The notes beneath the pieces are model-generated. The model saw only the letters and a list, made by a program, of their open reading frames with translations. It did not search any database and had not been told where the DNA came from. DNA of 59,484 bases, counting the filler. It is 6 parts of 6 records of this genome, joined end to end, with 100 filler letters (N's around TTAATTAATTAA, not from the genome) between each part and the next. Parts side by side here need not be neighbours in the genome. Positions count along the whole stretch, not along the records: positions 23,026 to 28,547 come from SRR2962707_548; 5 more parts are not named here. One strand, written 5' to 3'. The translations under genes and the position numbers were made by a program. Positions within the stretch are counted from its first letter, which is position 1, and every line of letters starts with the position of its first letter. Of the stretch, positions 15,982-33,741 are shown one piece after another.

Positions 15982-16020
15982 CTCGGGAACGCCGGGTTAG
16001 CTCCGACGCCCTGGGGGAAA

Positions 16021-16425: not shown

Positions 16426-16429
16426 GATG

Positions 16430-16864: not shown

Positions 16865-17000
16865 AGTTCCATTCCTTGAGCATCTGTCGACAGGTCACGC
16901 CCGTCGTTGTCCCAATGAATACAACTGCTTTGTAAGAAGCTTATGTCGGTGTCGTTAGCGTTTGTTACAAAGTGTAAAAAACTGCGTTTTCGCGCCGGTC

Positions 17001-18131
17001 TCAGTCCTTCAGGGCTGCCATGACATGACCCAGCATGCCATCGATTTTGGCCTGCTCCATCCAGCGGAAGACGCCGACAATATCCAGTTCCTGATCGATC
17101 CAGATCAGGTTCGACCCGGCACCCAGGGCAAAGAAACTGGAAGCCGGGGCGCTCGGATAATAATCACGGTCCGTGTTCAGCCACCACAGGAAACCATAGA
17201 CTTTATAGATGTCGATTGCCGTGTGCATCTGCTCGACCCAACCGGCATCAAGAACCTGCTTTCCGTCCCATGCGCCGTTTCGCGCAATCAGCAGCCCGAA
17301 CCGGGCATGGTCGTAGGTGTCGATCCACATACCGCCGCCCCAGTGTGTCCCGCCCGGGACGGAGACCATCGGTTTACCGTCGACCATGACCTCGGAATTG
17401 GAATAACCATGCCACTGCCAGTTTGCCGACGCGCCGATCGGATCCATGATCCGTTCCTTCAGGACATCCGGCAAAGGCCGTTTGAACAGGTGCAGCAGGG
17501 CCAGCGAGAACACGTTGACGCGGACATCGTTGTATTCCCAGAACGTCCCCGGCGTTTCCATCGGGCGCTTTTCGCCCTTGCGTTCATTGGTCGACCCGGC
17601 ACCGACCTCGCGGTAATGATCGACCTGATCGGGCTTGTCGAAAAGCGTGCCGGACCATTCGCTGGTCTGGGTCAGGAGATGCCGCCAGGTGATCTTGGAA
17701 TTGTGATCGCCCTGAAATTCAGGAATGTCGATATCCCCGGATACCGGGGCGTCGATGTCCTTGATCAGGCCGTCGGCGACGGCGACGCCGCACAGTACCG
17801 CCAGATAGCTTTTGGCGATTGAAAACGTCATGTCGATGCGGCCCGGATCTCCCCAGCTTGCCGCGATTTCACCGCCACGCAGGATCAGACCGGCAGGACC
17901 GCCCCGTGGTTTGAGCGGACCAAGAAACTGGTTCCAGGGCTCAGGTTCGATCTGGGTCAGGCCCGGCACACTGCCGGCGTCTTCGAGATCACGCGGCCAC
18001 GAACTTTCGCTGGCTTCGGCATAGGCCACGGCCTGATCCAGTTTTGCGCTGTCAAAACCAAGGTCCTGAGGTGCGCGGGTGGCCCATTCGCCGGCGCCGG
18101 AAACCGGCGGCACATATGTTGAAGCTGTCAC
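17001..18131 (-). CDS. Serine hydrolase, beta-lactamase class C/AmpC-like fold, cytoplasmic
   Basis: FSIAKS (SxxK), HLLTQTS, PGTFWEYND (catalytic Tyr), YGFLWW; GGAG RBS; no signal peptide. Confidence 0.9.
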   Translation of the reverse strand: MTASTYVPPVSGAGEWATRAPQDLGFDSAKLDQAVAYAEASESSWPRDLEDAGSVPGLTQIEPEPWNQFLGPLKPRGGPAGLILRGGEIAASWGDPGRIDMTFSIAKSYLAVLCGVAVADGLIKDIDAPVSGDIDIPEFQGDHNSKITWRHLLTQTSEWSGTLFDKPDQVDHYREVGAGSTNERKGEKRPMETPGTFWEYNDVRVNVFSLALLHLFKRPLPDVLKERIMDPIGASANWQWHGYSNSEVMVDGKPMVSVPGGTHWGGGMWIDTYDHARFGLLIARNGAWDGKQVLDAGWVEQMHTAIDIYKVYGFLWWLNTDRDYYPSAPASSFFALGAGSNLIWIDQELDIVGVFRWMEQAKIDGMLGHVMAALKD

Positions 18132-18262
18132 GTGATGATCTCCTGGAAGAATTATTCGGTGTTCAAAATATCACACCGCCCCCGTCAACCAAGGGCTGAA
18201 TTTTGTATTCCGCAGACAATCAACTATGCCTATGATGAAGGAATGAAATCATGGAGGGGTTC

Positions 18263-19294
18263 ATGTTGCGCCTAGTAAAGCTTGCCTTGTTAACCGGTCT
18301 GATATGCATTGGAAGCCCGAGCGGTTCTTTTCTGTCGCACGATGCTCAGGCTGATGATCTCAGATTTTTCAATATCGCGTCCGGCTCCAGGGGAGGCACC
18401 TATTTCCCCATCGCCTCCTCCCTGGCAAAAGTCATTTCCAATCCGCCCGGTTCGAAATCCTGTGAAAACGGCGGCAATTGCGGCGTACCGTCGCTGACTG
18501 CAACGGCGCAAAGTTCCGGCGGCTCGGTCGCCAATGTCGATGCGCTCATGAGCAAGAAGTTCCCCTCGGCCATTGCCCAGTCGGACGTCACGTACTGGTC
18601 CTATACAGGCACCGGGCCGTTCCGGACCCGCAAGCCGAACACGTTGCTCTGTGTTCTCACAAGCCTGTATCCGGAAGACGTGCATCTGGTGGCCACCCGC
18701 GCCTCCCGCATTGAAAAAATCGAAGACCTCCCCGGCAAGCGCGTTGCTCTCGGCGAACGGGATTCCGGGGCACTGCTCGGCGCCCAGCTTCTTGTGCGGG
18801 CCTACGGTCTGCAGGAAGGCAAGGACTTCACGCCCTCGTATGTGAATTACAACGGCGCCGTCGATGCCATGAAGGCTGGCCAGATCGATGCCTTTATCAC
18901 AGTGGCGGGTCACCCAAGTGCAAGCATCACTGACATGATCAAGTCAGAAGGTGCGCATCTGGTGCAGATCATCGGCAAGGGGCGTGAAGTGCTGGCGGAA
19001 AAATCACCGTTCTATGCCCTGTCCGAGATTCCCGCCGGTGCTTATCCCGATCAGACCCAATCGATAAAGACCGTCGCCGTCACGGCGCTTTGGCTTTCAC
19101 GCACCGATCTCGATCAGGAATTCATCTACAAGGTCACCAAGGCATTCTGGAGCAACAAATTCGCTCGTGACATCCTTGATGCTGGACATCCCAAGGGTAA
19201 ATCGATCACCATGGCGTCTTCGTTTGACGGGGTTCCTATCCCGCTGTGCGTCGGTGCGCAGAAATATTACAAGGAAATCGGCCGCCTTAAATGA
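18263..19294 (+). CDS. TAXI-family TRAP solute-binding protein
   Basis: ASGSRGGTYFP, SGGSVAN, QSD, LYPEDVHLV, GKRVALG..SG and IPLCVGAQKYYKEIG motifs; GGAGG RBS before ATG 18263. Confidence 0.92.
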   Translation: MLRLVKLALLTGLICIGSPSGSFLSHDAQADDLRFFNIASGSRGGTYFPIASSLAKVISNPPGSKSCENGGNCGVPSLTATAQSSGGSVANVDALMSKKFPSAIAQSDVTYWSYTGTGPFRTRKPNTLLCVLTSLYPEDVHLVATRASRIEKIEDLPGKRVALGERDSGALLGAQLLVRAYGLQEGKDFTPSYVNYNGAVDAMKAGQIDAFITVAGHPSASITDMIKSEGAHLVQIIGKGREVLAEKSPFYALSEIPAGAYPDQTQSIKTVAVTALWLSRTDLDQEFIYKVTKAFWSNKFARDILDAGHPKGKSITMASSFDGVPIPLCVGAQKYYKEIGRLK

Positions 19295-20613
19295 CCTCCC
19301 CCAATCAGTTAAGTGCCAGTGACGCCCTGCAGGCCATACGCGCCGGGGAGCTTACCTCCCGCAATCTTGTCGATGCCTGCATCCAGCACGCTGAATCACG
19401 TGAAGATGACGTCGGCGCGTGGATTTACCTGAACCCCTGTCTGGCCCGTGAACAGGCCGATGCCTGTGATGAAGCGAAGGCCGCCGGCCGTGATCTCGGC
19501 CCATTGCACGGTATTCCGGTCGGCCTGAAGGACATTATCGATACCGCCGACATGCCGACGGAAAACGGCTCCGCCCTGTTCGAGGGGCGCCGCCCGGTCA
19601 CCGACAGCACCATCGCCCGCCTGCTGCGGGACGCCGGGGCCGTGGTCATGGGCAAGACCGTCACCACGGAGTTCGCCCTGACCGCATCCGGCAAGACCAA
19701 AAATCCCCATAACCCGGCACACACCCCCGGCGGCTCGTCTTCCGGTTCAGCTGCTGCCGTGGCGGATTTCCAGGTTCCGCTGTCGGTCGGCACCCAGACC
19801 GGGGGCTCCATGCTCCGCCCCGCGTCGTTTTGCGGCGTCTATGGATTCAAGCCAACGTTCGGCTCCATTTCCCGTGCCGGCATGTTCACCCTGGCCCGTC
19901 CGCTCGATCACCCGGGCATCTATGCCCGCTCGCTTGAAGATATTGCCCGTACCGGCGATGTGCTGATGGTCAAGGACCCGGCCGATCTGGACATGCGCGG
20001 CCACCTGCGAACCAATCTTCTCGAAACATTCAGTTCGCCGGCGGAGACACCCCCCCGGATCGCGTTCGTGAAGGGACCGATGTGGGCCTTTGCCGAGCCC
20101 TACATGAATGATCTTTTCGCCGGTGTCATGGATAGCCTGAAGGGACATGCGCAGGAAGTTGAACTGACGGGAGTCTTTGACGATGCCCTGGATTGCCAGG
20201 GCACCGTGATGATGGCCAACGTCCGCGCCAATATTGGCGATTACTGCGACAACCATCCCGACAAGGTTCGCGAAGAAACCCGCCGCCGCAATGCCCAGGG
20301 CGAAGGTATCACCGCGGAAGCCTATGTGCGGGCCATTGAATTTCGTGACACCATTGCTGCCGCGCTGGATAAACTGTTCGACAGCTATGACGTGCTGATC
20401 ACCGCCGCTGCCCCCGGTGAGGCACCGCTTGGGCTTGAAAGCACCGGCAATGCCGTGTTCCAGAAGCTTTTTACCCTGACCGGTGTGCCGACGGTCAGCC
20501 TGCCCAAGCTTAAAGGCCCCACGGGTCTGCCCATCGGGCTTCAGGTCATTGGCCGCCACGGCCACGACGGCGAACTTCTGCGCCATGCCCATTGGATAGA
20601 GGAAGCGTTTTGA
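19291..20613 (+). CDS. Amidase-signature family enzyme
   Basis: GPLHGIPVGLKD (Lys), TPGGSSSGSAAAVA, GTQTGGSMLRPASFCG (Ser-cisSer-Lys triad); ATGA overlap with the TAXI gene. Confidence 0.95.
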   Translation: MTSPNQLSASDALQAIRAGELTSRNLVDACIQHAESREDDVGAWIYLNPCLAREQADACDEAKAAGRDLGPLHGIPVGLKDIIDTADMPTENGSALFEGRRPVTDSTIARLLRDAGAVVMGKTVTTEFALTASGKTKNPHNPAHTPGGSSSGSAAAVADFQVPLSVGTQTGGSMLRPASFCGVYGFKPTFGSISRAGMFTLARPLDHPGIYARSLEDIARTGDVLMVKDPADLDMRGHLRTNLLETFSSPAETPPRIAFVKGPMWAFAEPYMNDLFAGVMDSLKGHAQEVELTGVFDDALDCQGTVMMANVRANIGDYCDNHPDKVREETRRRNAQGEGITAEAYVRAIEFRDTIAAALDKLFDSYDVLITAAAPGEAPLGLESTGNAVFQKLFTLTGVPTVSLPKLKGPTGLPIGLQVIGRHGHDGELLRHAHWIEEAF

Positions 20614-21836
20614 CGGCCAGCGTTGATCAGGACAGACTTTGGAATTCCCTCATGCAACTTGCCGAAATCGGCGCCACCCCCAAAGGCGGGGTCTGCCGGA
20701 TTTCACTCAGCGAGGAAGACTGCAAGGCACGGGACCTGTTTTGTACGTGGGCGCGTGAAGCCGGCTGCGACATCCGTATTGATACCATCGGCAACATCTT
20801 TGCCCGCAGGCCCGGCCGCAATCCTGATGCCGATCCGGTGGTGACGGGCAGCCATATCGACAGCCAGCCGCTCGGCGGCAAGTTTGACGGCGCCTACGGG
20901 GTCATGGCCGGGCTGGAGGTGATCCGTGCCCTGAACGACGCCGGGATCGAAACCGAGGCCCCGATCGAGGTCGTGGACTGGACCGACGAAGAAGGCGCCC
21001 GGTTTTCCGCCGGGTGTATCGGATCCGGTGTGTATTCCGGTCTCCGCGATCTCGAAGATGTGCTGGCCCTGACGGACGCCAAGGGCATGAGCTTTGCGGA
21101 TGCGCTGGCCGAAAGCGGCTACGCGGGGACGGAAGCCGTCGGCGAAAACACTTTCAAGGCGTATTTCGAAGCGCATATCGAACAGGGACCCATCCTCGAA
21201 GACGCCGGACTGCCGATCGGCGCTGTCGTCGGGGCGCAGGGTCAACGCGGGTTTCTGGTGACCGTCACCGGGTTCGACGGCCACGCCGGGACCCTGCCGA
21301 TGTCCAAGCGCCGGGATTCATTTATCGGTACGGCAAAAATGGCGGTGGCGCTCAACGACCTGGCGAGCCGTTACGAGCCGGTTGCAGTCATCACCATCGG
21401 TCATGTCGAGGTCAAACCGAATTCACGCAACACCGTCCCCGGCCAGACCATTTTCAGTATCGACAGCCGCCACCCGGACAGCAGCGTCCTGCAGCAAATG
21501 GAAGAAGACATTTCCCGGATCATCGATGACATTGCCAATGATTGCGGACTGGTCACGGACATCAAGGTGGTCACACGCGCCGAACCCGTCATCTTTGACC
21601 AGGCCTGTGTCGATGCGGTCCGGGATGCCTGCCGGGACCGGCAGATCAGTTACATGGATATTAACTCGGGGGCCGGTCACGATGCGTGCAAGATCGCATC
21701 CGTTGCCCCCACGGGCATGATCTTCGTGCCCTGCACCGACGGCATCAGCCATAACGAAATGGAGCATGCGGAGCCAGAAAATCTGGCGCTCGGCGCACAG
21801 GTGCTTCTGGATGCCATGCTGAAGGTTGCGCGGTAG
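20610..21836 (+). CDS. M20 Zn-dependent amidohydrolase (N-carbamoyl-amino acid hydrolase / beta-ureidopropionase / allantoate amidohydrolase family)
   Basis: GSHIDSQPLGGKFDG, DEEGARF, EAHIEQGPILE, GHAGT, SGAGHDA, GISHN; TTG start overlaps the amidase TGA, with GAGGA RBS. Confidence 0.93.
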   Translation: MTASVDQDRLWNSLMQLAEIGATPKGGVCRISLSEEDCKARDLFCTWAREAGCDIRIDTIGNIFARRPGRNPDADPVVTGSHIDSQPLGGKFDGAYGVMAGLEVIRALNDAGIETEAPIEVVDWTDEEGARFSAGCIGSGVYSGLRDLEDVLALTDAKGMSFADALAESGYAGTEAVGENTFKAYFEAHIEQGPILEDAGLPIGAVVGAQGQRGFLVTVTGFDGHAGTLPMSKRRDSFIGTAKMAVALNDLASRYEPVAVITIGHVEVKPNSRNTVPGQTIFSIDSRHPDSSVLQQMEEDISRIIDDIANDCGLVTDIKVVTRAEPVIFDQACVDAVRDACRDRQISYMDINSGAGHDACKIASVAPTGMIFVPCTDGISHNEMEHAEPENLALGAQVLLDAMLKVAR

Positions 21837-21874
21837 GCCGGTGTTTCGAGACAACCCGGCCCCGGCGGACGGCC

Positions 21875-22924
21875 TCAGGATTCCGGTTTAATCTTTTCCG
21901 TCACGTCCGCCATCTTCTTGGCGATCTGCTCGTACTGATAATCCGGAATGATGTAGATCCAGCCTTTGGTCCGCTCGGCAATCGCGCGTGCCTGTTTGGC
22001 AGCGTCGGAATTTTCATCGTCACCGATGTATTTGGCCGATACCGTCATGTACTGGGTTTTGTCCTTCTGCCACATCCGGGTCGTCACGTGGATGGCGTCG
22101 GTGCTGAAGAACTCGGTGACATAGGCGTCCTTGGGGTCCAGATCGACCGAGCCTTCGCGGCGCACATCGTTCAGGACAAAAGAGTTCAGAACTGCCGCCA
22201 CGTTACGGGGGGCGAATTCGCTTGTCAGCTTCATCCCCTCAGGCAGATTCTCGAAGGCAAAGTCGCCGGTCACGCCCTTCATCGGAATGACGATCAGCTG
22301 CTCACCATCCGGTTGCGTCACTTCGGCGCGGGCAATGCGTTCGGGTTTGATATCGACGATGTCCCGCTGCAGCCAGTCACGGCGTTCAACACCAATATCG
22401 ACCAGGCCGCGGACCAGCCATGTCTGATCTTCACCCGGACGGCGCACATACATCCCCCCTGTCGTCGTTTCCGGCAGGAAGAAATTGGCACTGCCGACAA
22501 TCAGATCGGCGATCACGTCACCGCCGGCGCCCTTGAGCGTGACCTGCTGGGCATTTGCACGCTTCTGTGACGGATCACCGAGGTTAAGATCATTGAACCG
22601 GTCCGGGTTTTTGGTTTTCGCTTCAAGCAATTCCATGTTGGAGAGGCTGAAGATCACCTTGTTCACCAGATTGGCATGCACCGGATAGCCGTCGCTTTCC
22701 TTGAGCCGCCAGGTTTCGCCGTCACGAACGAACGTCGTCGTGTCGCCGTTCTGCAGCACGATCATCTCGGCCACATCCCCGGCGTTTTCAAGCAACCCCG
22801 GGAACAGGCGTTCACCCTTGAAGTTGGTGCTCTGGTAATCGACCCGCGACGAAACGCCGTAGGCCGCGGCCGCGACGCTAACAATGGCGGCCAAAAGCAG
22901 AATGCTGACGGTTCTGGGTGTCAT
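21875..22924 (-). CDS. DUF4340-type membrane-anchored periplasmic protein (usually the last gene of Gld-like ABC operons)
   Basis: N-terminal TM anchor; W.L....YPV, L+VG....YVR...EDQTWLV and GWIYIIPDY patterns; starts at the contig edge. Confidence 0.75.
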   Translation of the reverse strand: MTPRTVSILLLAAIVSVAAAAYGVSSRVDYQSTNFKGERLFPGLLENAGDVAEMIVLQNGDTTTFVRDGETWRLKESDGYPVHANLVNKVIFSLSNMELLEAKTKNPDRFNDLNLGDPSQKRANAQQVTLKGAGGDVIADLIVGSANFFLPETTTGGMYVRRPGEDQTWLVRGLVDIGVERRDWLQRDIVDIKPERIARAEVTQPDGEQLIVIPMKGVTGDFAFENLPEGMKLTSEFAPRNVAAVLNSFVLNDVRREGSVDLDPKDAYVTEFFSTDAIHVTTRMWQKDKTQYMTVSAKYIGDDENSDAAKQARAIAERTKGWIYIIPDYQYEQIAKKMADVTEKIKPES

Positions 22925-22925
22925 C

Positions 22926-23025
22926 NNNNNNNNNNNNNNNNNNNNNNNNNNNNNNNNNNNNNNNNNNNNTTAATTAATTAANNNNNNNNNNNNNNNNNNN
23001 NNNNNNNNNNNNNNNNNNNNNNNNN
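22926..23025. other. Artificial contig spacer
   Basis: 44N-TTAATTAATTAA-44N. Confidence 0.99.
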
Positions 23026-23027
23026 AA

Positions 23028-25133
23028 GAAGAAGAACAAGAAGAAGAAGAAGCAGAGGTAGGGACAACAGAAACAACATCAAGCAACAACTGCGGCATTC
23101 GTTACACTGAAGAGATGAATTTCGGAGTCCTCCGGGGCTCCGACACAGTCGCCATGTTCGCACTGACTTCATCTGTGGAGTCCATGGACGGCAGGCTCTT
23201 CGACATGTCGGTGGTCCAAAAGACTGCGGAAACTTCGGTAAAATCGTCCTTTGCATTCAACGGGACTGGGTTCTTCGTGCTGAGTTCTGGCGGCTCGTTC
23301 GACGGTGGCGCGTCCAAGTTTGTGCCGATTCTCAAGCAGAACCGCCGATTCTTGTCGCGCGTGGCTGCGCAGAAGGACTTTGAACAAGCCTGCCGGGCTG
23401 GTGCCCAGCGTCACGTGGTGGCGACTGTGCGCCCGGAACTTGGAGCGGCAATTGTGAATGTCACCCGTGAAAGGACAGACTTCAGTGGAAGTGCCATTGC
23501 GGCCGATTTTGCGGCACTCGTCGCAACGTCGCGCTGGAAAACGTCGCTGCAAGGCGTTCCATTGACCATCTACGAGTCGTACACTGCTGACTGCACAACG
23601 CTCGTGCGATCCGAAATGCAGTCGCCATTTGGACCATTGGTTGTGGAGCTTGCTTCTGAAGAAGCTGTGCAGCCACTGCTTCGCAAGTTTAAGGCCAAGG
23701 ACTTTTCGGACTCCAAGTTTCCTGAGATTGTGAACAGTGCATCGGTGCCATTGGCATTTCCTCTTGTGACAGTTCAAACTGCAACCATTGCCACCTTTCG
23801 CGTGGAGCTGGAGCAACAGCGCAATTTAGAGGAAGACCGCGGGCTGTTTCTTCCCTCCGCAGGGTATCAAACCTTCTCGAGTGAACTCGTGCATCAACAC
23901 AGCCAACATCCCGCAGCAGGAAACAACAAATCACGGGTTGGGTTTGTGACAGTCGATTTATCTCGACCACAGCCGGTTTTAGAAACTGTTGACCTGCACC
24001 TTGCAGACAGCGAATATCTTGCAGCTTCGACAATGATAAACTCAAACGATGCTGGCGTCCGTGATCTCCATGCTACGCTTCTGATGGCAGCCGGCAAACC
24101 CGCGACACCAGGCTTCTCCGCTGCAGCGAACAATGTGTCTTTCCAAGAGCGCTGGGCGAGAGCGGGAGTGTTCCGCGAGGGTGTTCGCCGCTACATCACG
24201 CGGAAGGACTTGAACACTGGATATGGCTCTGCTTCTGAGGTTGTCATCTCGCGTGCAGGAGATTGCACAGAACATGCGGTTTTGCTCGCTGCTTTATTGC
24301 GGGTTGACGGAATTCCTGCTCGAGTGTGCAATGGTCTTGTCTACACTGAGCACTGGAACACTCACGGTGGTGCATGGGTGAATCGGAGCGTCGACCCGGC
24401 ATTTGGATGGCACATGTGGACCCAGGCCGCCATCGCTGGCCATTGGCTGGATTTAGACGCCACATTGCCGCAGCCGTTCAACGTGGGCCATATCCTCGTG
24501 AGCACTGAGTCGCTGAGTGGTGGGTCGGTGATTTCAGGTTCAATCTTGGCCATGTTGCCGCTGATGAAGCATCTTAGGATCGAGCTGCAGAGCATCGAAG
24601 GAGTGCACCCTAGGAAGCCCGCCAATGATCTTGCTCCTGATGTGCAGGAGGTACAAGTTGGGGTCCTTCACGCTGCTCTGGATAGCCGCAGTAAAACCAG
24701 TGCTTCTCGCACTTGCCAGCGAGCCAGGCCAGGTGATAAGGTTCATATTCGAGCCTCGACATTTCTGCGTCGGAGCGGGGCTGTGCTCAGCCACTCCACC
24801 TGGAACGAGTTGTCGCGCCGTGAAAGCCCGCAACCGACTGACGGTGATGCACTCCTTGAGACCAACCAGCGTGCCGTGGATGTTGTGCAGTTGGGCCCGC
24901 CAAGCTCTGATCTTCGTACAAAAGGTGGCATGCGTATTCCGGCGGTTGTGGCGGAGTCTGCAATCGCTGGCCTATGCGCAGGTGAACGACGGGTGGTGAT
25001 GGTTCCAAACAGCCTTGACCCGGGAAATCCGTGGAGCCGATCTCTTTATGTGCACAAAGAAGCAACCATTGTGCATGACATTGAGATTGTGGACGTTGTA
25101 ACTGCCACTGCCGATGGCAAGGACGAGCTGTAG
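23028..25133 (+). CDS. Transglutaminase-like (Cys-His-Asp) protein fused to a degenerate FKBP-like domain with C-terminal KDEL; 5'-truncated
   Basis: Frame open from the contig edge (EEEQEEEEAEVG...). GDCTEHAVLLAALLR..GIPARV, WHMWTQA, WLDLDAT; then C..ARPGDKVHI...GLCAGERRVVMVP...ATIVHDIEIVDV; ends KDEL-stop. Confidence 0.85.
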   Translation, partial: EEEQEEEEAEVGTTETTSSNNCGIRYTEEMNFGVLRGSDTVAMFALTSSVESMDGRLFDMSVVQKTAETSVKSSFAFNGTGFFVLSSGGSFDGGASKFVPILKQNRRFLSRVAAQKDFEQACRAGAQRHVVATVRPELGAAIVNVTRERTDFSGSAIAADFAALVATSRWKTSLQGVPLTIYESYTADCTTLVRSEMQSPFGPLVVELASEEAVQPLLRKFKAKDFSDSKFPEIVNSASVPLAFPLVTVQTATIATFRVELEQQRNLEEDRGLFLPSAGYQTFSSELVHQHSQHPAAGNNKSRVGFVTVDLSRPQPVLETVDLHLADSEYLAASTMINSNDAGVRDLHATLLMAAGKPATPGFSAAANNVSFQERWARAGVFREGVRRYITRKDLNTGYGSASEVVISRAGDCTEHAVLLAALLRVDGIPARVCNGLVYTEHWNTHGGAWVNRSVDPAFGWHMWTQAAIAGHWLDLDATLPQPFNVGHILVSTESLSGGSVISGSILAMLPLMKHLRIELQSIEGVHPRKPANDLAPDVQEVQVGVLHAALDSRSKTSASRTCQRARPGDKVHIRASTFLRRSGAVLSHSTWNELSRRESPQPTDGDALLETNQRAVDVVQLGPPSSDLRTKGGMRIPAVVAESAIAGLCAGERRVVMVPNSLDPGNPWSRSLYVHKEATIVHDIEIVDVVTATADGKDEL

Positions 25134-25505
25134 TTGCTGCGAAGCCGCACACGCGTTGCGGTGTGCCCTGCAGTGGTTGCATTGTGAGGCATGAGAGCTT
25201 CTAAAGAGGAGATCAAATTGCGCACCCCTTGCACAGCTTCAAAGCACAATACGAGCTTTATTGAACTTTTCGAACGCGCCGCCAGTTGGGCTGAAGACTC
25301 GATAAAGTGAGCAAAGGGAGTCGCTGCTCGAATGTTGCTTCGCGATTTATGACTTATCAACACACATTGAGAGACTCTTTTTCGTTCGCAGACCATCGAT
25401 CTCCACCTCAACTGCTCAAAAAATAGGTGCCTGCTGATCGCCAGCTCGTGAACGGCCGAATTGGTCTGCTTTAGTGCCGTTCGTGTTCACTCAGCACCAA
25501 GCCTC

Positions 25506-26499
25506 CTAACTCTCGCTTTTCTTCTTTCTCTTCTTGTCCTTCTTCTCTTTCTTGGATCTCTTTTTGTCAGATTTGTCCTTCTTGTCTTTCCTGCCGCTGC
25601 TGTGGCTGCCCTTCTTTTTCTTTTTGTTTCTCCGTTGCTGGCGACCCCGTTCAGCCGCTTGCAACCGAACCGCGGCCTTTTCCTTCAACTTTTCGAACTT
25701 GGTTGCAGCACTGTCAAGAACATCATTCAGAACCGTATCTCGCACAGCCTCGTCCAGCAAACTCCACGATGGGCGCTTATGCATCGGAGGGGGTGCGGAA
25801 GAGTCGTCGTCTCCCATCATTGCAGCTAGCTCGGCGTCGAGCTTTGCTTGTCTTTGCTTGGCGAAGTCAACCTCCTCCTGGTCGGCCTGGTAACGCTTCA
25901 TCAACGGATCGCCTTGTTCTACGTCGTCCTCACCGTCCGAGGACCCTTCGTCCGAGTCGTCGTCCGAGTTCTGCTCAGTTTGTTTCTTTGCTACCCAAAA
26001 CTTGGTCAGTGGTAGCCAATGGTCCTTGACTATGCAAATCCAGTCTCCCTGCTTCATAATTGGCTTGACGACCTCGTTGAACTTGATGCGCCTGTTGTCT
26101 TCGTTGACATCAGTCACCTTCGGAGAATTGCGGTAAACCAGCCCCGCATGCACGCAGCAAACATATTGATGCCCGGTCACATCTTCTTCGTCCTCTAGCT
26201 TCTCTGTCTGGGTGAGTCCGCGCTCGAGACTTTTGCCCCCAGACTTCTCGTCGTTTGACTGCTTCCGCCAGGTTCCGAAAAACAAAACACCAACAACACA
26301 GACCACAGAAATGAGTGACAGGGGACTTGGGTTCGATAACAAGGAACGGTGCTGCAGCACGGAGAATGCACGCGAGTACCTCGGATTGGGCTTCTTCCGG
26401 CTCGCTGTTGTTCGTGCCGGGTGCTTTCCCCGCAGCAGCGGGTGCGCCTTCCCCAACTGCGGAATCTGCTCGTTTCGGCGACGATGCACCGTTCCCCAT
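25506..26499 (-). CDS. Two-exon eukaryotic gene, ~290 aa: N-myristoylation motif, SH3-like segment, IQ motif, Lys-rich tail
   Basis: Exons 26499-26380 and 26258-25506 (GT-AG, phase 0); MGNGASS; AAVRLQAAERGRQQRR; poly-K C-terminus. Confidence 0.7.
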
Positions 26500-27221
26500 A
26501 TCGACCAGCGCTCGTTCACACAATGAACGCAAACCAAAAGCTACCACCTCTGGGTGGCGGCAAGGCGCGGTCAGTGGGGCGAACTTGCTAACCTCTTTTC
26601 TGTGATGTCCTTTGGGGTGTCCTTTTGTGGTGCTGTCTGTTCGTGTTTTGAAGAAAAGTCAGCTGCAGTTTGTTCAAGAGTTCGACTAGCTCTTGACCGT
26701 TGCTTTGTACTTTGAGTGAGCAGCGACGTTTGGTGTGAGGGTAGTGGTGTGAGGGAGTGGCGCCCAGCCCGTCGTGCCAACTTGGCGCGCGGCGCAAGCT
26801 CGGGGTCAGTCTCGCGCTGCTGCTTGTTGAAAGAGACTGAGAGGAGTGCAACGCCGAAGTCATGACTCACGGGTGGAAACCTCGGCTTTCACCTTGTGCA
26901 TGCAGCCAACAACATACTGTTGGCAGGGTGTGGTAGGACAACACAGCGACCCAAAAGAGACACCAAAGTGCAAAGCCAGCTGCTGGTATTGCTTCACGAG
27001 TTGTGAGATGGTAGCTGGTCATAGTAATAGTGGTTGGCATTGGACAAGAAGGAGAGAGTTGTGTGATGGTTGCTGCTGCAGGCTGTAGTCGTTGATGGTT
27101 TCGGCTCCATCGATTGGTGTCCATGTATGTTGTTGTTGTGACTGCTGACTTCACAAACATGGTTTCTTTTTCGACAGAAGAACTCGCATGCTTCGAGCTC
27201 CGCCTATTGTGGGTGGGTGAA

Positions 27222-27270
27222 GAGTGTTGAGTGTTGAGTGTCGAGTGTTGAGTGGTGAATGTTGAGTGGT
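27222..27270. repeat. Imperfect 7-bp tandem repeat (GAGTGTT)n
   Basis: About seven degenerate units read directly. Confidence 0.75.
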
Positions 27271-27409
27271 GCAGAGTGGTGAGGAGAGTGTCTGTCTGTC
27301 CGTGCTCTGCCCTTTGTTTCTTTTGGAGTGAGTACATACAGTACAGTGCGGTTTAGTATTCCGGAGCCTCTTGGCAAAAGGCGTAAGCGCATAACATGCT
27401 CGCAAGCCG

Positions 27410-27475
27410 TACTTTGGCATTGAAGTGAGTTTTCATGCAACCCGTACTTACTTTGGCATTGAAGTGAGTTTTCAT
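27410..27475. repeat. Perfect 27-bp direct repeat x2 (TACTTTGGCATTGAAGTGAGTTTTCAT), 12 bp apart
   Basis: Copies at 27410-27436 and 27449-27475. Confidence 0.9.
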
Positions 27476-27644
27476 CTCCCAGCTGCCTGGAAGGATGTCG
27501 TGGACCAACGCTTGGGGTTGAACCGTCTCAACGCAGGAGATGGGGTTGTTGAATATTTTGATAAGTTAACGCGCTTTTTAGCAGCTTGTGACAGCTAAAT
27601 CTGAGAGAAGAAAAAAAAAAACACGGCAGTGTTTTCACTGCTTG

Positions 27645-28417
27645 TCAGTCTTCCTCGATCGGTTGAAGCGGCTTGCCCTCGTGCAAAGGGAGTGTCCCAT
27701 GCGCCCGGAACCATCTTTGTCGCCGCTGGAACGCTGCTTTGGCAATCTTCGTCCAAATCGCTTCGCCCAAACTGGCCGTGCTCAATGTGCCAGCGCGTTG
27801 ATGCAGGGCAAGCAGTTGACTGGCTGACGTACCGTCAACTGCGGACGAGTCCAGGGAAATGGGCGACAGATGCACCAGTACGTAAGCCTCGACCGCAGCA
27901 ATATGCTGTCGTTGTCGGTAAGCTCGACCTAGTTTACGCATCGATTTCTGCACTGACAAAGGGATGGAGAGGTACCTATAGAGACCATGTCATGTGCAAG
28001 CCAGCAAGAATTGTGAGCGAGACGAGCGGTCTCCCCATGAGCGCAACAGGCACATCATCCATTGCTTGGGTCACGCATGGGCATCGACGAGAAAAAAACA
28101 CACCGCCCATAGGTATCTTTGTCGATTGCGAGGTCGCCGCGGACGTTCTGCAGGTCATCAGCATAGCTGAGTGCCATTGTTCCAACCCCAGCAAACTTTG
28201 AGTCGCTTTCCATTTTGGTCTCGACAATACTGTACACCAAAGCAGCCGCTTCCGTAAAGCGCCGCTCGTTCCCGCCTTCAGCATTCGCCGTTTCATGAGA
28301 CGACAGCACAGCCTGGGACCGTGCTGACAACCCCGAAAGTGCCCGTGTTGAAGCTATCGATATCAAAAACAGCAGCAGCAGAGTCGTGCGCAAGGCACCT
28401 ACGTGGCCGAGCGCCAT
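27645..28417 (-). CDS. Putative two-exon secreted hypothetical protein, ~214 aa
   Basis: Hydrophobic signal peptide (LLLLFLISIASTRA); GT-AG intron 28103-27976 joins two ORFs in frame; no family recognised. Confidence 0.5.
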
Positions 28418-28517
28418 GCTGCACCTATCAGATTCGTCCGCTCACGCTAGGCAGCACCAAAACAAATGAGAACAGGTTGCCGTCTTGCTCTCAACAATCC
28501 AACGACAGTTGTCTCGA

Positions 28518-28541
28518 CAGCAGCAGCAGCAGCAGCAGCAG
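28518..28541. repeat. (CAG)8 microsatellite near contig end
   Basis: Read directly. Confidence 0.9.
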
Positions 28542-28547
28542 CGGCGG

Positions 28548-28647
28548 NNNNNNNNNNNNNNNNNNNNNNNNNNNNNNNNNNNNNNNNNNNNTTAATTAAT
28601 TAANNNNNNNNNNNNNNNNNNNNNNNNNNNNNNNNNNNNNNNNNNNN
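28548..28647. other. Artificial contig spacer
   Basis: 44N-TTAATTAATTAA-44N. Confidence 0.99.
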
Positions 28648-28851
28648 AAACCTCATTTAAACCTTGATATAAGTGGAATCCAATAAATTCCGTTAACTTC
28701 TATCGGGCAACAATAATTTTTTATTAAAAAGGAGTTATAAATCTAGATTTGCTTTTGGTATTGAGGTTGAAGAAGGGAGGAATAAATTCATTTTTAGAAA
28801 GATATGCAGTATAAAGTTGGGTTTAGGTGTTTTTAGGTTTAAAAAAAATTG

Positions 28852-28859
28852 TATATTTG
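28852..28859 (+). promoter_or_regulatory. Bacteroidota -7 promoter box (TAnnTTTG) for rimP-nusA-infB
   Basis: TATATTTG about 70 nt upstream of the rimP ATG. Confidence 0.75.
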
Positions 28860-28886
28860 CACCGTTGAAAGTGAATAATCTATTTC

Positions 28887-28913
28887 AGAGGGGACATAAA
28901 GTCCCCTCTTTTT
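28887..28913 (+). promoter_or_regulatory. rimP leader terminator-like hairpin (probable attenuator)
   Basis: AGAGGGGAC-ATAAA-GTCCCCTCT followed by a T run, between the promoter and the start codon. Confidence 0.7.
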
Positions 28914-28926
28914 ATACAAATATTAG

Positions 28927-29388
28927 ATGTTGAAGGAAAAAGTAACAGCGCTTTTAAACGAATTTTTTGAAGAGAATAAATCGTTTTTTTTGGTTGATTT
29001 CTCATTAACTCCCGATAATAAAATCAAAATAATTGTTGATGGAGATAACGGAGTTACTTTGAAAGATTGTATTGCAGTAAGTAGGCAAGTAGAACATAAT
29101 TTGGATAGAGAAGAACTCGATTTTTCTTTAGAGGTTACTTCCCCAGGAGCTACAGAGCCTATAATAAACAACAGGCAGTACAATAAGAATATAGGTAGAA
29201 AATTTCAAGTAAAAACTGCTGAAGATAAATTTGAAGGAGAACTTACTGCTATTACAGAAAGTGGCATTCAGTTAAGTTGGAAAGCCCGAGAGCCTAAACC
29301 AGTTGGGAAAGGTAAAGTAACAGTAAAGTACGAGAAAGAGATCCCTTTTGCGGATATTGTGGAAGCTAAAGTGATGATAACATTTTAA
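28927..29388 (+). CDS. rimP: Ribosome maturation factor RimP
   Basis: DGDNGVTLKDC..VSR and LEVTSPG motifs; first gene of the rimP-nusA-infB operon. Confidence 0.96.
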   Translation: MLKEKVTALLNEFFEENKSFFLVDFSLTPDNKIKIIVDGDNGVTLKDCIAVSRQVEHNLDREELDFSLEVTSPGATEPIINNRQYNKNIGRKFQVKTAEDKFEGELTAITESGIQLSWKAREPKPVGKGKVTVKYEKEIPFADIVEAKVMITF

Positions 29389-29401
29389 TTAAGGAATTGA
29401 C

Positions 29402-30634
29402 ATGGAGAATATTGCATTGATCGAATCATTTTCTGAGTTTAAAGACGATAAACTCATAGATCGTGTGACGTTAATGGCCATTTTAGAAGATGTATTTAGA
29501 AATGCGCTAAAGAAAAAATTTGGATCTGATGATAATTTTGATATTATTATCAATCCAGATAAAGGAGATTTAGAGATTTGGAGAAACCGAATTGTGGTTG
29601 CAGATGATGAAATAGAAGACGATAACCAAGAGATTTCATTAACAGAGGCTAGAAAAATCGAACCAGATTTTGAGGTTGGAGAGGATGTGTCAGAAGAAGT
29701 GAAGCTTATCGATTTGGGAAGAAGATCTATTCTTGCTTTAAGACAAAACTTAATTTCTAAAATACACGAGCACGATAATACAACCATTTATAAGCAATTT
29801 AAAGATCTTATAGGAGATATTTATACTGCGGAAGTGCATCATATTCGTCATAAAGCTGTTATTTTGTTAGATGATGAAGGAAATGAGATTATCCTTCCGA
29901 AGGATAAACAAATCCCTTCAGACTTTTTCAGAAAAGGTGAAAATGTTAGAGGAATCATAGAAGGTGTTGAGTTGAAAGGAAACAAACCTATGATTGTAAT
30001 GTCTAGAACGGCTCCTGAATTCCTTGAGAAATTATTTGAACAAGAAATTCCAGAGGTTTTTGATGGCTTAATTACTGTTAAAAAAGTAGTTAGAATTCCT
30101 GGAGAGAAAGCAAAAGTTGCGGTAGATTCTTATGATGATAGAATAGATCCAGTTGGAGCTTGTGTTGGAATGAAAGGTTCTAGGATTCATGGAATTGTTC
30201 GTGAATTAGGAAATGAAAATATAGATGTTATTAACTTTACAAACAATCCACAGTTGTTTATTAGTAGAGCATTGAGCCCAGCTAAAGTAAGTTTAGTAAC
30301 TTTGAATGATGAAACTATGCATGCCGAAGTGCTTTTAAAACCAGAAGAGGTTTCTAAAGCAATCGGAAAAGGTGGTTTTAATATTCGTTTAGCCGGACAA
30401 TTAACCGGTTATGAAATTGATGTGCTTCGTGAAGGAGTAGAGGAAGATGTTGAGTTAACAGAATTCTCAGACGAAATAGAAGCATGGATAATTGACGAGT
30501 TTAGAAAAATTGGTCTTGATACTGCAAAAAGTGTGTTAGATCAGGATGTGGCTGATTTAATTAGAAGAACAGACCTTGAAGAAGAAACAATTATAGAAGT
30601 TGTTAGAGTTCTTAAGGAGGAATTTGAAGACTAA
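29402..30634 (+). CDS. nusA: Transcription termination/antitermination factor NusA
   Basis: EIPEVFDG, RIPGEKAKVAV, DPVGACVGMKGSRI, KAIGKGGFNIRLA (S1+KH domains). Confidence 0.98.
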   Translation: MENIALIESFSEFKDDKLIDRVTLMAILEDVFRNALKKKFGSDDNFDIIINPDKGDLEIWRNRIVVADDEIEDDNQEISLTEARKIEPDFEVGEDVSEEVKLIDLGRRSILALRQNLISKIHEHDNTTIYKQFKDLIGDIYTAEVHHIRHKAVILLDDEGNEIILPKDKQIPSDFFRKGENVRGIIEGVELKGNKPMIVMSRTAPEFLEKLFEQEIPEVFDGLITVKKVVRIPGEKAKVAVDSYDDRIDPVGACVGMKGSRIHGIVRELGNENIDVINFTNNPQLFISRALSPAKVSLVTLNDETMHAEVLLKPEEVSKAIGKGGFNIRLAGQLTGYEIDVLREGVEEDVELTEFSDEIEAWIIDEFRKIGLDTAKSVLDQDVADLIRRTDLEEETIIEVVRVLKEEFED

Positions 30635-30783
30635 TTTTATAGTATAAGTAGCCTTTGTATTTTTGTATAAAGGTATATTGAAGATAATAATAAGGATGTT
30701 TTTGGTGTAGCCACTTTTGTAGCAACATTGTAAGCATTAAGCTCACCGAGTGAGTAAATAAAATTTAGGATAACAAATATTGT

Positions 30784-33741
30784 ATGGCTGAAAGCGCAAA
30801 ATTGAGGCTAAATAAAGTTTTAAGAGAGTTAAATATTTCATTGGACCGAGCGGTAGAATATCTATCGTCCAAAGGTCATGAAGTGGAGGCACGCCCTACC
30901 GCAAAAATTACCAATGAAGTATATAACGTGCTCTTAGACGAATTTCAAACAGATAGAAGCAAGAAAGTTGCCTCTAAAGAGGTTGGAGAAGAAAAGCGTA
31001 AAGAGAAAGAAGCGATTAGGCAGGAATTGGAAAAAGAGAATGAGCTAAAACGTCAGAAGCAAGAAGAACATGAAGTTGTGAAAGCAAAGGCGAATTTAGC
31101 AGGTCCAAAAACTGTTGGTAAAATCGATCTTGATGGAAAGAAAGAACAAGCTGCTCCAGAGAAACCGAAGGAAGAAGTTCAAGCCGAGAAAGTAGAAACG
31201 CCTCAGCCTGAAAAACAACCAGAGAAACCGAAGGAGGAAGTTAGTAAACCAGCGGAGTCTAAAGTTGAAGAAAATAAAAAGCTTGATAAAAAAGTAGAAG
31301 AGCCTAAAGCGGAGGTTGAAAAACCTGTTGAGGTTAAACCAACAGAAAGCAAGCCTGAACCTAAAAAGGAAACAGAGCCTGCTAAACCTAAGCAAGAAGT
31401 TCCTCAGCAAAAACCAAAACAAGATCCAAAACAAGAATCTAAGCCAGAACCAAAACCAGTTCAAAAAGAACCTGTGGTTCCTAAGGAGACTAAAAAGGTT
31501 ATTGTAGATGGGGAAGAGGTGGATTCTGAACAGGTTAAAACCAAGTACACAAAACTTTCTGGTCCAAATTTTACTGGGGAAAAAATAGATCTTTCTCAGT
31601 TTAATAAACCTAAAAAGAAAAAAGAAGATCCTAAAGCTGCTGATAAAAAAGGAGCTAAAGCTGCAGACGATAAAAAGAAACGTCGTCGTAGAATTAGTAA
31701 GGATAATAACAATAAAGGACCTAGGCCAAATACAGGTGGAGGAAATAATGCAGGGGGTAATAGATTTTCTAAAGATAGAAATAATGCTCGTGGCAAAGGA
31801 AGAAGAAATACTGCTCCTGTTGAAAAGGTAGAGCCTACAGAAGAAGAAGTACAAAAACAAGTAAGAGAAACTCTTGAAAAACTTCAAGGGAAATCTAATA
31901 AATCAAAAGGTGCTAAATACCGTCGTGAGAAAAGAGATTTCCATAGACAAAAATCTGAGAAAGAATTAGCACAGCAGGAAGCAGAAAGCAAAGTGCTTAA
32001 AGTAACAGAATTTGTTACTGTAAGTGAAGTTGCAACTTTAATGGATGTTCCAGTTACTCAAATTATATCAGCATGTATGTCGCTTGGTATGATGGTAACA
32101 ATGAATCAGCGTTTGGATGCGGAGACGCTATCTATTATTGCTGATGAATTTGGATATGAAGTTGAATTTATTACAACAGACATCGAAGAAGATGTTGAAG
32201 TGGTTCTAGATGCTCCTGAAGATTTAATACATAGAGCACCAATTGTTACGGTAATGGGTCACGTTGACCACGGTAAAACGTCTTTGCTGGATTATATCCG
32301 TGAAGAAAATGTTATTGCTGGAGAGAGTGGAGGTATTACACAGCATATTGGAGCGTATGGAGTTACATTAAAAGACGGTCAGAAAATAGCGTTCTTAGAT
32401 ACTCCTGGTCACGAAGCCTTTACGGCGATGCGTGCGAGAGGGGCTCAAGTAACCGATTTAGCAATTATTGTAATTGCTGCCGATGACAATGTGATGCCAC
32501 AAACAAAAGAAGCTATTAGTCATGCGCAAGCAGCTGGAGTTCCTATTGTATTTGCAATTAATAAAGTGGATAAGCCAACGGCAAATCCAGATAAGATAAA
32601 AGAGAGTTTAGCTCAAATGAATCTTCTTGTAGAAGATTGGGGAGGTAAGATACAGTCTCAAGACATTTCTGCTAAAACAGGACAAGGTGTTCCGGAATTA
32701 TTAGAAAAAGTATTGCTAGAGGCTGAAATATTAGAGCTTAAAGCAAACCCTAATAAGATAGCTAACGGTACCGTAGTAGAAGCATACCTAGATAAAGGTC
32801 GTGGTTATGTATCTACCGTATTAGTTCAGGCAGGAACATTAAAAATTGGAGATTATGTACTGGCGGGAACGCATAGTGGTAAAGTTAAGGCAATGCAAGA
32901 TGAGCGTGGAAACGATATCAAGGTGGCAGGTCCTTCAACTCCAATTTCAATATTAGGTTTAGATGGAGCGCCGCAAGCTGGTGATAAGTTTAATGTTTAT
33001 GAAGATGAACGTGAGGCAAAACAAATTGCTACTAAACGTACGCAGTTACAACGTGAGCAATCTGTAAGAACTCAACGTCATATTACTTTAGATGAAATTG
33101 GAAGACGTATTGCTTTAGGAGACTTTAAAGAGCTTAACATTATCCTTAAAGGAGATGTGGATGGTTCTGTTGAGGCACTAACCGATTCTTTCCAGAAATT
33201 ATCTACAGAAGAAATACATATAAACATTATACATAAAGCTGTAGGTCCAATTACAGAGTCTGATGTATTGTTAGCTTCGGCTTCTGATGCAATTATCATC
33301 GGGTTTAATGTTAGGCCAATGGGTAATGCCCGTTCGGTTGCTGATAAAGAAGAAATCGATATCCGTACCTACTCAATTATCTATGATGCTATTAATGACC
33401 TTAAAGATGCTATGGAAGGTATGTTGTCTCCAGAGCTTAAAGAGGAAATTACTGGTACTGCAGAAATCCGTGAAACGTTCAAAATTTCTAAGGTTGGAAC
33501 TATTGCAGGTTGTATGGTAACAGATGGTAAGGTTTATAGAAATTCTGGTATTAGATTAATACGTGACGGAGTTGTAGTGTATACTGGAGAATTGACTTCA
33601 TTAAAACGCTTTAAAGACGATGTTAAAGAAGTTTCTAAAGGCTACGATTGTGGACTTCAAATCAAAAACTACAATGATATCCAAGTTGGAGATGTTGTAG
33701 AGAGTTTTAGAGAAGTTGAGGTTAAGAAGAAGTTGAAATAA
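30784..33741 (+). CDS. infB: Translation initiation factor IF-2
   Basis: [35 protein letters not shown]; long K/E/P-rich N-terminus. Confidence 0.99.

Follow-up and report, generated by a model that had tools for sequence, protein, structure and literature searches.

The open frame at positions 23,028 to 25,133 of the window—by which we mean the whole 59,484-nucleotide stretch of DNA analysed, made up of six contigs joined via N44-TTAATTAATTAA-N44 spacers—encodes most of a protein in which a transglutaminase-like core is followed by a diverged FKBP domain and a C-terminal KDEL, which arrangement is a new combination of known parts. The frame, like every feature described below, lies on the + strand; it stays open for 701 codons up to a TAG at 25,131–25,133, as against the approximately 700 codons counted in an earlier, sequence-only reading of the same stretch, and its 5' end is missing, the contig starting at 23,026 within a GAA-rich stretch. 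The complete protein is represented by P0002, a full-length sequence of 768 residues that is 100% identical to the window frame across all 701 residues of the latter (P0002 residues 68–768) and that stems from a transcript-derived EukProt ORF containing both halves of the protein. The motifs reported by the sequence-only reading—GDCTEH, GWHMW, LDLDAT, RTC, GLCAGERR, and KDEL—were each found in place, so that what it had observed is confirmed, while its interpretation of the protein as an ER-lumen, transglutaminase-like enzyme with a degenerate FKBP domain is supported by the results given below, the roles it suggested (quality control, cross-linking, or a substrate-binding arm) being conceivable ones.

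The AF2 model of P0002 has a mean pLDDT of 78.6, with most of the residues from 45 to 600 above 90. The sequence-only reading had considered that the lack of a signal peptide in the full-length protein would speak against its proposal; the start of P0002, outside the window, is in fact signal-peptide-like in its n-, h-, and c-regions according to a heuristic based on hydrophobicity and small residues only, with K10 in the n-region, a hydrophobic core at about residues 11–21 (the highest 9-residue Kyte–Doolittle mean being 3.53, at 12–20), and then SANDAHS-A, where small residues precede A29. The first folded unit is a DUF1849-like beta half-barrel (23,028–23,660; P0002 45–278, the window holding only 68–278) that was modelled with pLDDT values mostly above 90 and whose likeness to DUF1849/DUF3108-like domains is present at the level of the predicted fold: in VIA-align the model of residues 45–278 matched 6ntr_D with a Z of 18.3 and an rmsd of 3.2 over 205 aligned positions (target, 236 residues). 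A likeness to RseB was weaker (Foldseek, E 2e-3 to 6e-3), and Pfam returned no match for this domain of P0002 at E ≤ 5, DUF3108 and DUF1849 included. A middle beta-rich region (23,661–23,975; P0002 279–383) comes next, which region is partly spanned by the match of the model to 3isr (318–595). At the level of the whole protein, a phmmer search of the PDB gave marginal matches only, namely TgpA at E 0.4 and 4a26 at E 0.04, the latter judged a chance match; NCBIfam had no family at E ≤ 0.01 for either P0002 or P0003, the latter being a second fusion protein described below.

The catalytic core, of the transglutaminase-like (papain-like) type, occupies positions 23,976–24,626 (P0002 384–600) and includes a Pfam Transglut_core match (PF01841) at 24,201–24,461, corresponding to residues 392–478 of the window protein, with an E of 4e-13 and a score of 50 bits, where the cut-off is 23. 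The triad that had been described as intact-looking proved to be invariant, the Cys (C480 of P0002, in GDCTEH; codon 24,264–24,266), the His (H529, in GWHMW; 24,411–24,413), and the Asp (D544, in LDLDAT; 24,456–24,458) each being conserved in all 80 sequences of the family alignment. In structural comparisons of the predicted model, residues 318–595 aligned with 3isr_A, deposited as a "putative cysteine protease," at a Z of 15.3 and an rmsd of 5.3 over 211 positions (VIA-align), and the Foldseek neighbours of the core included TgpA and a LapG-containing complex. The cores of TG2, TG3, and factor XIII scored a Z of about 10 over model residues 384–600 (VIA-align). A linker predicted to be disordered (24,627–24,710; P0002 601–628; pLDDT below 50) connects this core to the C-terminal domain.

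On the basis of the predicted fold together with profile comparisons, we identify the C-terminal 140 residues as a diverged FKBP domain (24,711–25,115; P0002 629–763), as had been proposed from its FKBP-like shape. The likeness is weak by Pfam, where FKBP_C (PF00254) scored 16.7 bits—under the cut-off of 21.1—at an E of 0.0094 and over profile positions 49–93 of 94; support for it comes from hhalign, the predicted fold, and an exhaustive phmmer search. Among 1.84 billion representatives, the only non-self phmmer matches at E ≤ 0.001 were P0122 and P0123 (1.3e-4 and 4.5e-4), the former with three FKBP_C domains and the latter with four plus EF hands and a C-terminal HDEL; while a profile made from two sequences of the domain retrieved from the PDB, at E ≤ 10, four sequences only, all of them FKBP2, FKBP11, or FKBP14. 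Against seven FKBP repeats hhalign gave probabilities of 95.7 (local) and 96.9 (global), which test is not independent of the phmmer search, the repeats having been chosen as earlier matches of the query. The model of residues 629–763, whose confidence is low to middling (pLDDT 50–76 in the full model and 42 alone), matched FKBP13 (4nnr_B) with a Z of 10.2 and an rmsd of 2.4 over 99 positions aligned to a 101-residue chain (VIA-align) and 2pbc_A with a Z of 10.0; Foldseek found FKBP2 at an E of 2.4e-4. Folding of the tail alone from a two-row alignment yielded a poor model, for which every listed structural match except 9hjm_I was an FKBP—a weak concurrence only—and in a language-model search for look-alikes an FKBP cluster ranked first (0.90).

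The residues that form the isomerase and FK506 pocket of FKBPs are the Tyr of HYTG, the Asp of FDSS, the Trp of VIxGW, and the Tyr of LxYG. In the window protein the stretches aligned with HYTG, FDSS, VIKGW, and LGYG are IRAS, LSHS (hhalign) or WNEL (MAFFT), IPAVV, and LDPG, placing Ala, Ser or Asn, Ala, and Pro at the pocket positions. This assignment is alignment-dependent: hhalign and MAFFT differ in the FDSS region. The domain thus merits the term degenerate that it had been given, and most of the same positions are substituted in P0003 as well. The two cysteines that the domain was said to have retained are both present and aligned with cysteines of FKBPs: the first, in RTC (24,714–24,716), with the opening Cys of the P0122 and P0123 FKBP repeats, and the second, in GLCAGERR (24,975–24,977), with the GMC of FKBP2, FKBP11, and FKBP14; the pair might form a disulfide. 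An insertion of about 27 residues (24,798–24,878; P0002 658–684; pLDDT below 50) faces gaps in the canonical FKBP repeats.

The fusion is rare, as had been anticipated: a long tail is present in 2 of the 110 relatives measured, and a search with the tail region (P0002 600–768) returned P0002 alone from 1089 candidates, a search that is blind at 28% identity and accordingly failed to recover P0003. When metagenome contigs were scanned with alignment A1 of the tail, 600 pattern stretches came up, none of which was confirmed, and the scan with P0003 found only the contig from which that protein comes (L001), whose context was uninformative, seven adjoining ORFs providing one weak Pfam match under the cut-off. 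To judge from titles and the opening of abstracts, the literature retrieved held no relevant work joining transglutaminase-like proteins, FKBP, and KDEL, and no title among the matches listed on transglutaminase-like proteins of the ER or of stramenopiles was of relevance. P0003, from seawater, is the sister of the window protein in the tree and has the same four-part layout, 92% of the query aligning with it at 45% identity; it begins in a signal-peptide-like manner, carries GLFGMCDGELR in its FKBP-like tail, and ends in SKEL. It differs in having a shorter tail, in ending with SKEL instead of KDEL, and in that the two tails are 28% identical. In the same tree the bacterial rows stand on a branch separate from the eukaryotic ones with an SH-like value of 100, and the family is a eukaryotic offshoot of a family of secreted bacterial proteins. 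The roughly 330 residues of N-terminal domains, this bacterial-type origin, and the lack of an ER-retrieval ending in most eukaryotic relatives had been overlooked by the sequence-only reading.

We propose that a microbial eukaryote would carry here a nuclear gene without introns, the frame representing its 3' 91%, and that the product of this gene would begin with a cleavable signal peptide, seen in P0002 only because the window lacks this part, followed by the DUF1849-like half-barrel with its weaker RseB likeness, the transglutaminase-like core, the disordered linker, the FKBP fold, and KDEL. The FKBP-fold domain would derive from an ER-type FKBP that kept its two cysteines and lost the prolyl-isomerase/FK506 pocket residues. 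The protein would be imported co-translationally, returned by the KDEL receptor whenever it reaches the Golgi, and reside in soluble form in the ER lumen, where the Cys triad would act on proteins of the secretory pathway, with the half-barrel and the pseudo-FKBP serving as binding modules. The architecture and the ER targeting are in our judgement highly probable; a hydrolase equipped with binding arms is a proposal that we advance tentatively, as one possibility; and the explanation as a whole, in which those two parts are blended, we consider reasonably probable. The results establish the domain composition, the conserved triad, the FKBP fold and its degeneracy, KDEL, transcription of the region, and the rarity of the fusion; catalytic activity and its type, as well as any role of the FKBP domain in binding, are putative. 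For the enzyme as proposed, the oxidising ER lumen would not obviously be a favourable place for a free catalytic thiol.

That the fusion might not exist in a single organism, the contig being chimeric or the gene a bacterial contaminant, deserves consideration in view of the mixed assembly (contigs 2, 4, and 5 of the window are bacterial) and of the many bacterial members of the family; we nevertheless find this scarcely credible. The frame occurs in two runs of different years, in DNA contigs and in spliced RNA contigs that are continuous across the junction: the contig of run X2 spans 23,067–26,258 without a joint and splices out two GT..AG introns of adjoining minus-strand genes, both of which introns are kept in the DNA run X1, and we take X2 as RNA because its contigs are spliced, no run being catalogued as RNA for this stretch. 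The possibility raised beforehand that the two halves might be separate transcripts is thus contradicted by an RNA contig unbroken across the frame and by the P0002 ORF, an independent, transcript-derived record of the identical full-length frame; furthermore, P0003 carries the fusion intact on a separate seawater contig. The assignment to a protist agrees with the EukProt source, the introns of the neighbouring genes, and a clade composed of eukaryotes only. The closest bacterial genome compared (G001, sharing 28% of the window's words) has no homologue, which result counts against a contaminant, while being uninformative as to the protist. A different doubt concerns the compartment, since the protein could be secreted or reside elsewhere in the endomembrane system, its KDEL being unused or masked. 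Within the eukaryotic clade, x[DE]EL terminates just 3 of the 31 rows and SKEL one, the remaining 27—in a clade that includes P0002—ending in neither; ER residence is therefore not a trait of the family and rests on the ending of one protein; and the bacterial relatives are, judging by their N-termini, secreted or periplasmic. Against this alternative, which we regard as quite improbable, the KDEL said to end the frame is exact and at the extreme C-terminus (codons 25,119–25,130, or 25,119–25,133 with the TAG), after a stretch mostly free of regular secondary structure in the model; the sister protein ends in SKEL and the clade members P0017 and P0020 in KEEL and RDEL; the nearest relatives of the fused domain are ER-type FKBPs, one ending in HDEL; and an ERp29 C-terminal domain is inserted in the relatives P0009 and P0030 (Pfam). 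Signal-peptide cleavage and residence in the ER are accordingly what the two termini lead us to infer.

With respect to the chemistry, a hydrolase (protease, peptidase, or amidase) would be more likely than a calcium-dependent cross-linker, because the core finds its nearest structural matches in transglutaminase-like proteins from bacteria (3isr, TgpA, and the LapG-containing complex) and because Pfam detects no flanking domains of animal transglutaminases at E ≤ 5. A true transglutaminase, a transamidase cross-linking Gln and Lys residues of wall, scale, or surface cargo within the ER, would share the fold and the triad that are common to the core and to TG2, TG3, and factor XIII, and targeting to the secretory pathway would bring such an enzyme to the precursors of surface proteins; we nonetheless consider this improbable, the nearest structures being transglutaminase-like proteins deposited as putative proteases and the active-site motif being GDCTEH and not of the GQCW type. 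None of these results separates a hydrolase from a transamidase, and in the fold comparison the animal cores also reach a Z of about 10. Regarding the C-terminal domain, its predicted FKBP fold, the conserved GxC-GE-R-x-x-x-P stretch, and both cysteines would also suit a prolyl isomerase or FK506-binding chaperone still at work, making the protein a bifunctional foldase-enzyme; and some FKBPs with weak isomerase activity are still chaperones. The substituted aromatic-pocket positions, mostly shared with P0003, the insertion, and the sub-threshold Pfam score make that quite unlikely in our view, and we retain the pseudo-FKBP as the preferred reading.

If the protein is ER-resident and active, a transglutaminase-fold thiol enzyme would join the activities of the ER lumen, and the fusion would show clearly how an FKBP can be put to new use, without catalysis, as a module attached to another enzyme. 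The family is common to bacteria—those named being Planctomycetota—and to several algal and protist lineages, and its eukaryotic members have gained ER-related features independently, namely the KDEL, RDEL, and KEEL endings, the ERp29 C-terminal domain, and the FKBP. More speculative, and in our estimation rather unlikely, is the scenario in which a small protist lineage joined a bacterial-type secreted thiol enzyme to a captured ER FKBP, turned into a dead, proline-peptide-binding adaptor, and so came to possess a new ER enzyme of processing or quality control; such an adaptor would steer the enzyme to folding intermediates or proline-rich cargo, an activity for which the enzymes known to reside in the ER of animals, fungi, or plants would offer no parallel. 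The fusion was seen in two proteins only, one of them from an uncultured organism, and its practical value will stay modest as long as neither an activity nor a substrate has been established.

Among known systems, the bacterial secreted transglutaminase-like proteins, of about 500 residues and with DUF3108 plus Transglut_core in the Planctomycetota clusters, have in common with the window protein a signal-peptide-like start, an N-terminal beta domain, and a Transglut_core with invariant Cys, His, and Asp, at 27–34% identity over some 70% of the query; in the PDB, the core has its nearest entry in 3isr. DUF3108 occurs on 10–44% of the members of the look-alike bacterial clusters, and among the DUF3108 publications found none was, by its title or abstract opening, about this protein family. 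No tested function was found for any of these bacterial proteins. The bacterial forms differ in ending a median of about 47 residues past the catalytic Asp, without an FKBP-like domain and without KDEL. The animal transglutaminases TG2, TG3, and factor XIII likewise have a papain-like core with a Cys-His-Asp triad, but are 14–18% identical in structural alignments and have another active-site motif, of the GQCW type; in place of their beta-sandwich and C-terminal barrel domains, of which Pfam found none in P0002 at E ≤ 5, the core is flanked in the model by the DUF1849-like barrel and the FKBP fold. With the ER-lumen FKBPs (FKBP2/FKBP13, FKBP11, FKBP14, and multi-domain proteins like FKBP9/10), the C-terminal domain shares the fold, in which a beta-sheet wraps round a short helix (Z 9.2–10.2, rmsd 2.4–3.1), the GxC-GE-R-x-x-x-P stretch, the two cysteines, and a C-terminal ER-retrieval ending, which in P0123 is HDEL; it differs from them in its substituted pocket, its insertion, and its Pfam score below the cut-off, and, whereas ER FKBPs stand alone or beside EF hands, the domain described here forms the C-terminal extension of an enzyme.

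On the plus strand of the third contig of the window (5,522 bases, G+C 0.54), the frame under study runs from 23028 through 701 open codons to a TAG stop at 25131-25133; and since that contig begins at 23026 within a GAA-rich stretch, the frame is truncated at its 5' end. The motifs named in the sequence-only reading were each located at the coordinate assigned to them, among these the KDEL at the end of the frame. A protein search recovered P0002, a 768-residue transcript-derived EukProt ORF labelled "type:complete", which protein is 100% identical to the window protein across all 701 residues and has 67 additional residues at the N-terminus. A break at the GAA-rich (poly-Glu-coding) stretch 23026-23066 is common to the window contig and to the contigs from two public runs, X1 (DNA) and X2 (RNA), which coincidence indicates that the missing 5' end reflects a simple-repeat assembly problem and not the true end of the gene. 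In the N-terminus of P0002, a short Lys10-containing n-region is followed by a hydrophobic core spanning residues 11-21 (top 9-residue Kyte–Doolittle mean, 3.53) and by SANDAHS-A, a layout that, by a heuristic judgement from hydrophobicity and small residues, resembles a cleavable signal peptide, in keeping with the ER-lumen location proposed from the window alone. Nearly all the listed relatives, bacterial and eukaryotic, have the same type of N-terminal start.

All the sampled words of 23026-25500 were present in both runs. One X2 contig omits 26259-26379 (121 bases) and another omits 27974-28101 (128 bases), both pieces ending in CT..AC, that is, GT..AG on the minus strand, whereas X1 is unbroken through the two; X2 is therefore spliced RNA. 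The 4,417-base X2 contig spans 23067-26258 with zero joints, so that the transglutaminase-like and FKBP-like halves lie on continuous, intronless RNA. That contig extends into the convergent neighbour and would thus alone be no proof of one transcript; but the alternative that the halves belong to two separate transcripts, which the sequence-only reading had itself raised, is unlikely because a single open frame contains both and because P0002, an independent ORF, does so as well.

The first of those introns lies in the convergent neighbour gene (25506-26660, minus strand), whose upstream frame opens with MGNGAS, a possible N-myristoylation start, and whose product ends in a long Lys-rich C-terminal tail; the two frames composing that gene matched zero Pfam families at E ≤ 1e-5. 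The second intron belongs to another minus-strand gene, and the sole frame scanned beside it (27605-28198, plus strand) likewise matched zero families. Near the end of the contig the X1 sequence differs from the window by a TC>CT swap at 28434-28435 and single-base deletions at 27611 and 28092, which differences may be assembly errors or alleles.

The 59,484-base window as a whole is not a single molecule, but six contigs (1-8563, 8664-22925, 23026-28547, 28648-48501, 48602-53609, and 53710-59484) with five N44-TTAATTAATTAA-N44 spacers between them (8564-8663, 22926-23025, 28548-28647, 48502-48601, and 53610-53709) and a G+C ranging from 0.36 to 0.60. Contigs 2, 4, and 5 hold dense bacterial genes from at least two kinds of bacteria (G+C 0.60 and 0.36), with Pfam matches to hydantoinase, outer-membrane efflux protein, amidase, IF-2, COX1, AdoHcy hydrolase, and ManC. 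Contigs 1, 3, and 6, in which Pfam matches are nearly absent, look eukaryotic; one match there is the eukaryote-type SCAPER_N domain, from a eukaryotic ER-associated cyclin A partner, in an open frame of the last contig (58225-59085, minus strand; E 1.8e-11). A protist and accompanying bacteria are mixed in this assembly, and, among the genomes compared, the one closest to the window, that of a bacterium, lacks the gene.

The catalytic half gave a clear Transglut_core match in Pfam (E 4e-13; 50 bits, with a cut-off of 23), as had been expected. In an alignment of 80 sequences—P0002 and 79 of the 119 other listed proteins, hand-picked upon exclusion of short fragments and of two proteins with ERp29 inserts—C480, H529, and D544 (P0002 numbering) were invariant, and these are exactly the codons 24264, 24411, and 24456 at which an intact-looking triad had been read. 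The AlphaFold2 model of P0002 built on that alignment has a mean pLDDT of 78.6, with residues 45-600 mostly above 90, 601-628 below 50, and most of 629-768 at 50-76, excepting an insertion at 658-684. VIA-align divides the model into three matched parts: residues 45-278 with 6ntr, a Brucella DUF1849 beta-barrel-like protein (Z 18.3, rmsd 3.2, 205 aligned); 318-595 with 3isr, a Cytophaga "putative cysteine protease" (Z 15.3, rmsd 5.3, 211 aligned); and 629-763 with 4nnr, FKBP13 (Z 10.2, rmsd 2.4, 99 aligned of a 101-residue chain). Foldseek alone returned the same three groups along with TgpA, a LapG-containing complex, and RseB. Residues 46-277 also match chain Xh of 9fqr, a structure of the doublet microtubule of bovine sperm (Z 14.6, rmsd 3.6, 209 aligned).

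The tail model thus takes the FKBP fold that had been anticipated, with FKBP2 (Z 10.0), FKBP11 (Z 9.7), FKBP14, SlyD, and FKBP12 as further matches. Against Pfam FKBP_C, the tail scored below the cut-off (E 0.0094; 16.7 bits versus 21.1), over the second half of the profile only. When 1.84 billion representatives were searched exhaustively with phmmer, three proteins matched the 164-residue tail at E ≤ 0.001: P0002 itself and the multi-FKBP proteins P0122 (three FKBP_C domains; 1.3e-4) and P0123 (four FKBP_C domains plus EF hands and a C-terminal HDEL; 4.5e-4), the latter two E-values being sums over several repeats; the best single BLASTP segments had pairwise E-values of 1e-7 and 1e-4, respectively. 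A two-row tail profile (the window protein and its seawater-metagenome relative P0003) had just four matches in the PDB at E ≤ 10; each was an ER FKBP, with FKBP2 the best (E 0.08). With hhalign that profile aligned to the seven FKBP repeats that P0122 and P0123 together contain, at a probability of 95.7 locally (second half) and of 96.9 globally (around an insert some 25-30 residues long), though this comparison is not independent, the repeats having been selected as prior matches of the query. A language-model look-alike search, a lead only, ranked an FKBP cluster first (0.90). These results support the derivation of the tail from an FKBP, an assignment for which the confidence derives from a middling model together with sequence signals that are weak but consistent.

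The pocket-lining positions, which we take to be the residues of HYTG, FDSS, VIxGW, and LGYG, appear degenerate, as had been claimed: in mappings that are alignment-dependent, hhalign and MAFFT agree on Ala opposite the Tyr of HYTG, Ala opposite the Trp of VIxGW, and Pro opposite the Tyr of LGYG; hhalign places His opposite the last-strand Phe; and the counterpart of FDSS is LSHS in hhalign versus WNEL in MAFFT. Most of those positions are substituted in P0003 as well. The window protein and P0003 both retain the two cysteines singled out earlier (24714 and 24975), as do the FKBP repeats of P0122 and P0123. In FKBP13 the two cysteines form a disulfide, and by analogy the pair here might do the same.

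The search scored 1,013 of 8,000 candidates at E ≤ 0.001, the best 120 being listed, and the listed relatives other than P0003 cover just about 20–75% of the query. A catalytic Asp motif was recognisable in 110 of those 120, two of which have long tails beyond it—P0002 (222 residues) and P0003 (195)—the next longest being 67 and the median 47. A FastTree tree (80 rows, 67 of them unlabelled; P0002 positions 45-600; SH-like support, no bootstrap, midpoint root) split with support 100 into a 31-row group containing all seven rows named eukaryotic and a 49-row group containing all six named bacterial (Phycisphaerae/Planctomycetota). P0002 and P0003, the latter intact and intronless on a 13,984-base seawater contig, are sisters (support 100), and P0004, the next row, stops directly past the core; the simplest history would therefore be that the lineage of P0002 and P0003 acquired the FKBP domain once.

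Among the 31 eukaryotic-group rows three end in x[DE]EL (P0002, KDEL; P0017, KEEL; P0020, RDEL), P0003 ends in SKEL, and 27 have neither ending. In P0009 and P0030, eukaryote-type relatives excluded from the tree, an ERp29 C-terminal domain (PF07749; E 2.4e-9 and 2.8e-9, respectively) is inserted just before the core, which insertion is a second, independent acquisition of ER-chaperone type within the family. From these few endings and inserts, ER residence looks like a recurrent acquisition in the eukaryotic branch rather than a family-wide trait.

The protein accordingly has an N-terminus of secretory type, three folded modules, a triad that is both intact and conserved, a degenerate FKBP, and a final KDEL. 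Each of these parts is of a known kind; what is new is their combination: only two proteins were found in which a transglutaminase-like core is joined to a C-terminal pseudo-FKBP of ER type and a KDEL-type ending, and among titles and abstract openings we located no published description, so that the architecture still appears undescribed, as first suggested. We regard the protein as a neat, well-supported domain fusion from a little-studied eukaryote. Such a protein would enter the ER and be kept there by KDEL retrieval, where the thiol triad may act on luminal substrates, with the half-barrel and the pseudo-FKBP as candidate binding modules; known members of the half-barrel class (RseB, LolA) bind lipids or lipoprotein tails. 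The activity may well be hydrolytic, which reading we favour over cross-linking, itself rather unlikely, the remainder falling to no activity or another one; we lean towards hydrolysis because Pfam shows no animal-type flanking domains in P0002 and because the core has its nearest structural neighbours among bacterial transglutaminase-like proteins and not among the animal enzymes TG2, TG3, and FXIII, whose cores match the middle part of P0002 with a Z of about 10.
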